From Escherichia coli (lineage in GTDB: Bacteria; Pseudomonadota; Gammaproteobacteria; Enterobacterales; Enterobacteriaceae), in NCBI RefSeq assembly GCF_044324875.1, contig NZ_CP172185.1: DNA of 64,000 bases, one strand, 5' to 3'. Under the pieces are notes generated by a model. It made no database searches. It saw only the letters and a list, made by a program, of their open reading frames with translations, and had not been told where the DNA came from. Of the stretch, positions 27,954-51,188 are shown piece by piece; position 1 is the stretch's first letter, and each line of letters starts with the position of its first letter. The position numbers and the translations under genes are program-made.

Positions 27954-28030
<77 letters not shown>

Positions 28031-31917: not shown

Positions 31918-32108
31918 GGTACTCCTCGGCTTGATGCACCGATCGTGACGCAAAATTCACTTTGATACAAGGAGAGTGCTAACCATCAGAATTATCTGGA
32001 TATCCTGGCGAAGCCGCGTCAGTAACATATGCTGAATAGTGTTAGGCGTTAATTTTAGCCTGTTAATCAATACTATTAAGATTTATTAATCGCTTTAAGG
32101 AGAAGATG

Positions 32109-32336
32109 ATGAAAAAGACTGCCGCAATTATTTCTGCCTGTATGCTGACTTTTGCCCTGAGCGCCTGTTCCGGTTCGAACTATGTGATGCACACCAATGA
32201 CGGACGTACCATCGTCTCTGACGGCAAACCACAGACTGATAACGATACCGGTATGATTTCGTATAAAGACGCTAATGGCAACAAACAGCAGATCAACCGT
32301 ACTGACGTGAAAGAGATGGTCGAACTGGATCAGTAA
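32109..32336 (+). CDS. ygdI: small lipoprotein, DUF903 family (paralog of ygdR)
   Basis: [20 protein letters not shown] lipobox; start chosen at second ATG for SD spacing (AGGAG at 32098..32102). Confidence 0.85.
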
Positions 32337-32351
32337 TTCGCGATCGCAAGG

Positions 32352-32558
32352 TAAAAAAAAGCACCGCAATTAGGCGGTGCTACATTAATCACTATGGACA
32401 GACAGGGTAAATGTACAGGAAGTGAAAAAAGGTAGCTTTGCTACCATGGTCTGAATCGCAGACCAATTGCAAACACAACAACACAACATCACAACCGTAA
32501 GCCAAAAGTTCACCAGAACACGCATTCCGATAAAACTTTTCGTTCCGGCTCAGGAAGT
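32352..32558 (-). ncRNA. gcvB: GcvB small regulatory RNA (Hfq-dependent, amino-acid transporter regulon)
   Basis: Reverse complement begins ACTTCCTGAGCCGGAACGAAAAGTTTTATCGG.., contains the GU-rich region GTTGTGATGTTGTGTTGTTGTGTTTGCAATTGG and ends in terminator GCACCGCCTAATTGCGGTGCTTTTTTTT; divergent from gcvA. Confidence 0.85.
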
Positions 32559-32686
32559 GCCGCCACTATAGGTATTTGCTGGTAGAAGCTCAACGGACAA
32601 TTTATAATGGCTCAGATTAAAAAAACTAATAGGTTACACAGTGTGATCTAATTGTTAAATTCATTTAACATCAAAGTTTAAAAGCC

Positions 32687-33604
32687 ATGTCTAAACGATT
32701 ACCACCGCTAAATGCCTTACGAGTTTTTGATGCCGCAGCACGCCATTTAAGTTTCACTCGCGCAGCAGAAGAGCTTTTTGTGACCCAGGCCGCAGTAAGT
32801 CATCAAATCAAGTCTCTTGAGGATTTTTTGGGGCTAAAACTGTTCCGCCGCCGTAATCGTTCACTCCTGCTGACCGAGGAAGGGCAAAGCTATTTCCTCG
32901 ATATCAAAGAGATATTTTCGCAATTAACCGAAGCGACGCGTAAACTCCAGGCCCGTAGCGCCAAGGGGGCGTTGACGGTCAGTTTACTCCCCAGTTTCGC
33001 CATTCATTGGTTGGTTCCGCGACTTTCCAGCTTTAATTCAGCTTATCCGGGAATTGACGTTCGAATCCAGGCGGTTGATCGTCAGGAAGATAAGCTGGCG
33101 GATGATGTTGATGTGGCGATATTTTATGGTCGGGGCAACTGGCCGGGGCTACGGGTGGAAAAACTTTACGCCGAATATTTATTGCCGGTGTGTTCGCCGC
33201 TACTGCTGACTGGCGAAAAACCCTTGAAGACCCCGGAAGATCTGGCTAAACATACGTTATTACATGATGCGTCACGCCGTGACTGGCAGACATATACTCG
33301 CCAATTGGGGTTAAATCATATCAACGTTCAGCAAGGGCCAATTTTTAGCCATAGCGCCATGGTGCTGCAAGCGGCTATTCACGGGCAGGGAGTGGCGCTG
33401 GCAAATAACGTGATGGCGCAATCTGAAATCGAGGCCGGACGTCTTGTTTGCCCGTTTAATGATGTTTTGGTCAGTAAAAATGCTTTTTATCTGGTTTGTC
33501 ATGACAGTCAGGCAGAACTGGGTAAAATAGCCGCCTTTCGCCAATGGATCCTGGCGAAAGCCGCTGCTGAACAAGAAAAATTCCGCTTTCGTTATGAACA
33601 ATAA
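32687..33604 (+). CDS. gcvA: LysR-family transcriptional regulator of the glycine cleavage system
   Basis: 305-aa ORF with LysR HTH N-terminus; adjacent to gcvB. Confidence 0.93.
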   Translation: MSKRLPPLNALRVFDAAARHLSFTRAAEELFVTQAAVSHQIKSLEDFLGLKLFRRRNRSLLLTEEGQSYFLDIKEIFSQLTEATRKLQARSAKGALTVSLLPSFAIHWLVPRLSSFNSAYPGIDVRIQAVDRQEDKLADDVDVAIFYGRGNWPGLRVEKLYAEYLLPVCSPLLLTGEKPLKTPEDLAKHTLLHDASRRDWQTYTRQLGLNHINVQQGPIFSHSAMVLQAAIHGQGVALANNVMAQSEIEAGRLVCPFNDVLVSKNAFYLVCHDSQAELGKIAAFRQWILAKAAAEQEKFRFRYEQ

Positions 33605-50777: not shown

Positions 50778-51143
50778 GTCGACAGGGAGTCAGACAACGA
50801 AGTGAACATCAGGATGATGACACTTCTGAAGGACACACCAGGATGGTGTTTCAGGGAAAGGCTTCTGGATGAAGCGAAGAGGATGACGCAGGACGCGTTA
50901 AAGGACACCTCCAGGATGGAGAATGAGAACCGGTCAGGATGATTCGGTGGGTCAGGAAGGCCAGGGACACTTCAGGATGAAGTATCACATCGGGGTGGTG
51001 TGAGCAGGAAGCAATAGTTCAGGATGAACGATTGGCCGCAAGGCCAGAGGAAAAGTTGTCAAGGATGAGCAGGGAGCAACAAAAGTAGCTGGAATGCTGC
51101 GAAACGAACCGGGAGCACTGTGAATACAGTGCTCCCTTTTTTT
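50778..51143 (+). ncRNA. csrB: CsrB small RNA (CsrA-sequestering, multiple GGA motifs)
   Basis: About 366 nt with roughly 15-18 repeats of CAGGA(U/A/C)G-like motifs (catCAGGATGatg, acCAGGATGgtg, tCAGGATGatt, ttCAGGATGaag, ttCAGGATGaac, cAAGGATGag ...) and terminal hairpin gggagcactgtgaatacagtgctccc + T7; boundaries approximate. Confidence 0.85.
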
Positions 51144-51188
51144 ATTCCTGCTATTCTTCGCGGCAGTTTTTCTTATTGAGGTTGCTTT

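Follow-up and report, generated by a model that had tools for sequence, protein, structure and literature searches.

A palindrome lying between two convergent genes raises the question of whether a single element ends both of their transcripts and, if so, by what means. We address this for positions 32,337 to 32,686 of a 64,000-nucleotide stretch of Escherichia coli DNA (contig NZ_CP172185.1), the whole of which is referred to here as the window. A sequence-only reading of this interval had placed the small RNA GcvB on the minus strand, divergent from gcvA, and had proposed that its terminator also serves ygdI. We conclude, with high confidence, that the stretch is the gcvB locus of Escherichia coli and that one hairpin sets both RNA ends; the manner in which it does so differs between the two strands.

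The gcvB locus and its neighbours

When the whole window was compared with Rfam 15, the complete GcvB model (RF00022, positions 1-204 of 204) matched on the minus strand at 32353..32558, scoring 199 bits against a gathering threshold of 42 (E 1.1e-46). The gene so defined is 206 nt long and agrees at 206/206 positions with K-12 gcvB (b4443, 2942696..2942901). Both results bear out the placing of GcvB on the minus strand, the first of them being the covariance-model check that had been proposed for it; the coordinates originally given, 32352..32558, hold at the 5' end, but run one base too far at the 3' end (32353). Because the sequence is identical to that of an experimentally characterised gene, the identity of GcvB is realistically irrefutable, and what we describe is the reference GcvB, already known. 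Two minus-strand open reading frames inside gcvB, of 46 and 37 amino acids, were rejected as mechanical ORFs lying in a known non-coding RNA. Elsewhere in the window, a second small RNA, full-length CsrB, is found at 50787..51146 (+) (RF00018, 382.9 bits, E 2e-111); it has a terminator and numerous hairpins with GGA loops.

Relative to MG1655 the window is in reverse orientation (K-12 coordinate = 2975254 minus window coordinate), and over 401 aligned bases (32300..32700) the two differ by only two substitutions, at 32639 and 32682, both in the gcvA-proximal intergenic sequence and outside gcvB. Set against K-12 gcvB (b4443), the neighbours, the promoter, R1 and the two terminator hairpins are the same, with no difference in gcvB. 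More widely, of 5426 complete E. coli genomes all but one (5425) contain the 801-nt region around the locus (32000..32800), which matches many complete E. coli chromosomes, that of the type strain ATCC 11775 included, at 100% identity. At some distance from this region, between mltA and amiC, the window carries a single initiator tRNA-Met(CAU) gene at 27954..28030 (-), where K-12 MG1655 has three tandem copies (metZ, metW, metV); copy number here differs between the two.

The genes and control elements on either side of gcvB are as follows.

32109..32336 (+): ygdI, gene for a lipoprotein of the DUF903 / YgdI-YgdR family, convergent with gcvB (ORF, and RefSeq annotation of identical sequence)
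32565..32593 (-): gcvB sigma-70 promoter, -35 TTGAGC, 17-nt spacer, -10 TATAGT (consensus promoter scan)
32603..32631 (+): conserved block, with TATAAT at 32603-32608 (likely the gcvA -10) and ATTAAAAAAACTAAT at 32616-32630 (likely a GcvA box)
32687..33604 (+): gcvA, LysR-type activator of gcvTHP and gcvB (ORF and RefSeq annotation)

As had been read, gcvA is divergent from gcvB, and 128 bp separate it from the gcvB +1 at 32558 (-), before which the gcvB -10 ends by 7 nt. A block at 32559..32630, conserved across 83 distinct intergenic sequences, takes in the -10 and -35 of gcvB together with the plus-strand TATAAT and ATTAAAAAAACTAAT. GcvA binds CTAAT sites, and this is our ground for calling ATTAAAAAAACTAAT a putative GcvA box. 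That assignment, along with that of the TATAAT at 32603..32608 to the gcvA -10, is likely, given these sites and the overlapping promoters described in PMC3879156, where GcvA is reported to activate gcvB from a promoter that overlaps gcvA's own. GcvB is transcribed leftwards from its sigma-70 promoter, back-to-back with the gcvA promoter and under activation by GcvA. What GcvB does thereafter we take from published work on the identical RNA of K-12 and Salmonella: repression is Hfq-dependent, with R1 pairing to CA-rich sites near ribosome-binding sites; the targets are dozens of mRNAs of amino-acid transport and metabolism; and the RNA acts mainly during fast (exponential) growth in rich medium (PMC3879156).

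Along the RNA, from 5' to 3', we recognise the following features.

32501..32549 (-): SL1, the 5' stem-loop, outer arms GCCGGAA / UUUUGGC, predicted in the MFE fold and the Rfam consensus
32465..32496 (-): R1, GU-rich single-stranded seed region, GcvB nt 63-94, 87.5% G+U, unpaired in the centroid fold
32448..32464 (-): SL2 stem-loop, GGUCUG...CAGACC, in the MFE fold and the Rfam consensus
32425..32445 (-): T1/SL3, internal terminator-like hairpin GGUAGCAAAGCUACC followed by U6 (terminator scan; dG -6.9 kcal/mol, tail score 4.44)
32396..32424 (-): ultra-conserved 3' domain CACUUCCUGUACAUUUACCCUGUCUGUCC, R2 included, near-invariant in 97 distinct sequences
32360..32381 (both strands): terminator T2 hairpin, the palindrome serving both strands as GcvB terminator and as 3'-terminal hairpin of ygdI mRNA
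32353..32360 (-): U8 tail of GcvB, which is A8 on the plus strand (tail score 5.28)

The fold is more stable than shuffled versions of the sequence (z-score -3.6), the outer helix of SL1 is kept in 97/97 sequences, and SL2 occurs in the alignment in two variants, GUCCGG/CCGGAC and GUCUGG/CCAGAC. The GU-rich seed that had been noticed at the outset is present as R1, and its core, UGUGAUGUUGUGUUUGC, is invariant among 97 distinct homologues. For structure we relied on the Rfam model, RNAalifold on an alignment that is not structure-aware having returned partial GcvB structure with almost no covariation. Between families, R1 varies in length, being longer in Enterobacteriaceae (CUUACGGUUGUGAUGUUGUGUUGUUGUGUUUGC) than in Yersinia, Serratia and Morganellaceae (C-UUUGUGGUUGUGAUGUUGUGUUUGC) when 32465..32500 (-) is compared with the loci L003, L006 and others; this looks like an expansion of GU repeats in the seed region.

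One hairpin and two RNA ends

The palindrome itself has the stem GCACCGC-CTAATT-GCGGTGC at 32380..32361 (-), with arms at 32361-32367 and 32374-32380. Seven G/C-rich pairs and a closing A-U make eight pairs around a 6-nt loop, with a folding energy of -13.8 kcal/mol as GcvB RNA and -14.4 kcal/mol as ygdI RNA. It is GC-rich, sits between convergent genes and forms a hairpin on either strand, as a bidirectional terminator should, and it lies close behind the ygdI stop codon (32334..32336), as had been noted, with 24 nt between the two. The classical form of such a terminator, intrinsic in both directions, also has a U-tract after the stem on each strand, and here the U-tract follows in one direction only. 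The original description, of A8 on one flank and a T-run on the opposite one, does not hold in this respect: there is a single homopolymer run at the hairpin, 32353..32360, which is A8 on the plus strand and the U8 of GcvB, and the opposite plus-strand flank is TACATTAATCAC, from which the ygdI-side tail reads UACAUUAAUC, with a T-content like that of random sequence. By a d'Aubenton-Carafa-type T-tail score the ygdI-side tail TACATTAATC reaches 0.44-1.3 against 5.28 on the GcvB side, a level attained by 16-51% of all 15-mers in the window. A consensus terminator scan gave two terminators at the locus, T1 and T2, both of them minus-strand; it gave no plus-strand terminator.

The GcvB side of the hairpin is a canonical intrinsic terminator, and GcvB transcription ends there, at the hairpin 32381..32360 and the U8 that follows it. 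As in Hfq-dependent small RNAs generally, T2 and U8 presumably also form the Hfq-binding 3' module of GcvB. Read on the other strand, the same palindrome forms a hairpin of like stability with which the ygdI mRNA closes, the mapped 3' end falling 3-4 nt beyond it.

Published data bear directly on these two ends. The K-12 sequence at the hairpin is identical to that of the window, and 3' ends of MG1655 have been mapped by Term-seq in three conditions (Adams 2021, eLife, PMC7815308); the order of the sheets (LB OD 0.4, LB OD 2.0, M63) is here that of the file caption, not of sheet headers. The ygdI end translates to the window as follows.

32384..32385 (+): mapped 3' end of ygdI mRNA, K-12 2942870/2942869 (-), 3-4 nt past the stem (PMC7815308)

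It is listed as a ‘primary’ 3' end in all three sheets (Supplementary file 1), with scores of 36,630, 1,164,820 and 441,780, respectively. For GcvB, a 3' end at 2942894(+), window 32360, with a score of 134,815, appears in the first sheet only; in the second and third the GcvB ends are all internal and fall within R1, at nt 73 and nt 68 (PMC7815308). These internal ends, at window positions 32486 and 32491 (-), suggest processed 5' fragments at times when full-length GcvB is scarce; the strongest GcvB end corresponds to the first U of U8 (nt 199), which is 7 nt before the end as annotated.

Term-seq, put forward as the check for ends on both strands, has in these K-12 tables given the expected result, at 2942870/69(-) and 2942894(+). 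Since both mapped ends flank one hairpin, one DNA element defines both RNA ends, and the ygdI mRNA and GcvB overlap by ~32 nt at their 3' ends. The proposal that one palindrome terminates both convergent transcripts is upheld in so far as both ends map there; it does not carry over to termination on the ygdI strand, where the U-tract is lacking and Term-seq does not separate termination from trimming. The ygdI end is present, and has its highest scores, in the two sheets without a full-length GcvB end, and there is therefore no obvious need for active gcvB transcription; the end appears to be independent of concurrent full-length GcvB synthesis.

Two further published observations touch the same region. 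A strong Rho-termination region is listed near window 32120 (-) (K-12 2943134 (+)), opposite the start of ygdI and in antisense to it, with a Rho score of 10.25 and p 2e-71 (PMC7815308); one possible origin is transcription that passes the GcvB terminator and is ended by Rho in antisense ygdI, but the source is ambiguous, the 800-nt windows taking in gcvB upstream and csdA downstream. In Hfq-CLASH (Iosub 2020), ygdI is counted among the 3'UTR fragments found in chimeras, a weak observation that consists of one chimeric read in which the fragment AAGGTAAAAAAAAGCACCGCAATTAGG (32346..32372 +), holding the A8-hairpin, is joined to aldB.

Comparison across related genomes shows how far this asymmetry extends. 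A scan for the R1 pattern in one genome per species gave 120 loci. By nhmmer, 111 of them, all in Enterobacterales, contain a homologue of GcvB; the remaining nine, from unrelated taxa, are chance hits and were set aside. Terminators were compared in the 110 Enterobacterales loci for which one could be parsed. Where enough flank is available, gcvA is divergent from gcvB in every related locus, and ygdI lies convergent downstream in 77/110; among the related loci compared, none from Morganellaceae or Edwardsiella has a ygdI match beside gcvB. In 65 of the 77 a gap of 13-50 nt (median 22) separates the ygdI stop codon from the hairpin, too short for a separate ygdI hairpin to fit. In the other 12 (Yersinia, Rahnella, Hafnia and one Serratia locus, L088), ygdI is 67-284 nt away, and a search for a terminator of its own gave a weak candidate in only two.

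Across all 110 loci the GcvB-side T-tail is strong (minimum score 4.7), and a T-run on the ygdI side is found in none (maximum score 1.33). The score on that opposite side averages 0.44 with ygdI adjacent against 0.67 with ygdI absent and, being no higher beside ygdI, gives no sign of selection for a ygdI U-tract; the ygdI-strand flank ACAUUAAUCACUAUG is the complement of the conserved GcvB 3' domain. Neither in E. coli nor in these relatives, then, is there a bidirectional terminator shared with ygdI in the classical structural sense. The stem arms, GCACCGC/GCGGUGC, are invariant in 109/110 loci, with ygdI adjacent or not, the sole exception being a compensatory change of the outer pair, G-C to A-U, in Moellerella (L042). 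The T2 loop, by comparison, takes 50 different sequences of 3-8 nt. The T2 stem is conserved at the level of sequence, beyond what structure alone asks.

How the ygdI 3' end may arise

On the ygdI side, where it has no U-tract, the hairpin would act either as a non-canonical terminator or as a stop for exonuclease trimming. The reading that we prefer, albeit tentatively and with slightly less than even confidence, is that the ygdI end represents a Rho-independent, hairpin-dependent stop, that is to say weak or non-canonical intrinsic termination, perhaps followed by trimming of a few nucleotides. Speaking against an intrinsic stop are the tail UACAUUAAUC, which scores like random sequence, and the lack of a plus-strand terminator in the scan.

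Trimming alone is a serious contender, though we think it somewhat doubtful: transcription would read through into antisense gcvB and stop further on, by Rho or diffusely, after which PNPase/RNase II would trim the RNA back to the base of the hairpin, leaving this as a protective 3' cap. Intrinsic termination typically gives ends 7-9 nt past the stem, and the ygdI end, only 3-4 nt after it, is nearer than this, which fits trimming by an exonuclease. The missing U-tract points the same way, and Dar and Sorek (2018) have described stem-loop ends of this U-tract-less kind (PMC6061677). Term-seq, it should be said, records steady-state ends and not termination events, and trimming to a stable hairpin looks alike in such data. 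Weighing against this explanation, the ygdI strand downstream of ygdI is free of listed Rho-termination regions between 2940539 and 2945321 (PMC7815308 Supplementary file 2; bicyclomycin, DirectRNA-seq), and it bears no other 3' end ahead of rlmM (PMC7815308). The absence of a Rho signal is weak evidence, because peaks less than 100 bp apart were merged to the strongest, and because the Rho scores come from 800-nt windows in one condition only (Adams 2021, PMC7815308). Read-through would in addition yield an RNA fully complementary to GcvB and running into gcvA, of which we found no report.

An unlikely explanation, but one with precedent, is a head-on collision between the ygdI and gcvB polymerases at a pause-inducing stem-loop, which would need convergent traffic and not a U-tract (Ju et al. 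2019, Wang et al.). The geometry fits, with convergent genes, one hairpin and overlapping 3' ends, and hundreds of convergent E. coli gene pairs have been reported to have shared terminators of this sort; those described by the Liu laboratory bear no resemblance to intrinsic terminators and work without Rho, but require a stem-loop (bioRxiv 10.1101/2022.10.23.513370). Against a collision, the ygdI 3' end is at its strongest in precisely those two Term-seq sheets from which the full-length GcvB end is missing, GcvB is reported to be active mainly during exponential growth in rich medium (PMC3879156), and GcvB transcription needs no such help, its own intrinsic terminator being perfect.

The symmetric bidirectional intrinsic terminator that was first suggested, its palindrome flanked on each side by A-tract and U-tract, we regard as next to impossible: a GC-rich palindrome that separates convergent genes and is preceded by A8 on the ygdI strand does recall it, but the one homopolymer run, the unequal tails and the lack of a ygdI-side U-tract in all 110 related loci, whether ygdI is adjacent or absent, exclude it by sequence.

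Known counterparts and meaning

The locus can be placed beside known systems. Overlapping bidirectional terminators between convergent E. coli genes were reportedly described with SEnd-seq by Ju, Li and Liu in 2019. Like these, and like the terminators of convergent genes in the Wang et al. 2022 preprint, the hairpin here is one stem-loop with 3' ends on both strands, overlapping by about the length of the hairpin; unlike them, it is a textbook intrinsic terminator in the GcvB direction, and its ygdI end persists where the GcvB end is undetected. On the ygdI strand there is a likeness to the protective stem-loops of Dar and Sorek 2018 (PMC6061677), in the stable hairpin, the absence of a U-rich tail and the precise steady-state end just past the stem. 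That class, however, was defined for Rho-dependent transcripts and has no upstream A-tract, whereas ygdI has A8 upstream and no reported Rho signal; the A8 is incidental to the U8 of GcvB. In full-text searches no paper turned up that discusses a terminator shared by ygdI and gcvB, and neither gene is entered in the SMRT-Cappable-seq and TERMITe supplements. Published tables show the hairpin in use on both sides, a use that falls within classes of 3' end already known from E. coli.

We also entertain, as a long shot, the notion that the hairpin acts as a U-tract-independent insulator on the ygdI strand, and that the 3' overlap brings the abundant mRNA of ygdI into interaction with GcvB or lets it titrate this RNA. 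The 32-nt complementary overlap includes perfectly complementary 6-nt loops, and the A8 of the ygdI 3'UTR has been seen once in an Hfq chimera. Were this so, the hairpin would shield the gcvB/gcvA control region from heavy stationary-phase transcription of ygdI; without it, that transcription would make a full-length anti-GcvB RNA and run into gcvA.

GcvB being among the best-studied of enterobacterial small RNAs, the finding has little importance beyond correct annotation. It does carry a caution, in that a palindrome between convergent genes may mark both RNA ends without a symmetric arrangement of A-tract and U-tract, and the ygdI end offers an example of a U-tract-less mRNA end defined by a hairpin, be it through termination, trimming or collision. 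If the insulating role were real, this dual use could be part of the reason why the sequence of the stem is invariant across Enterobacterales.
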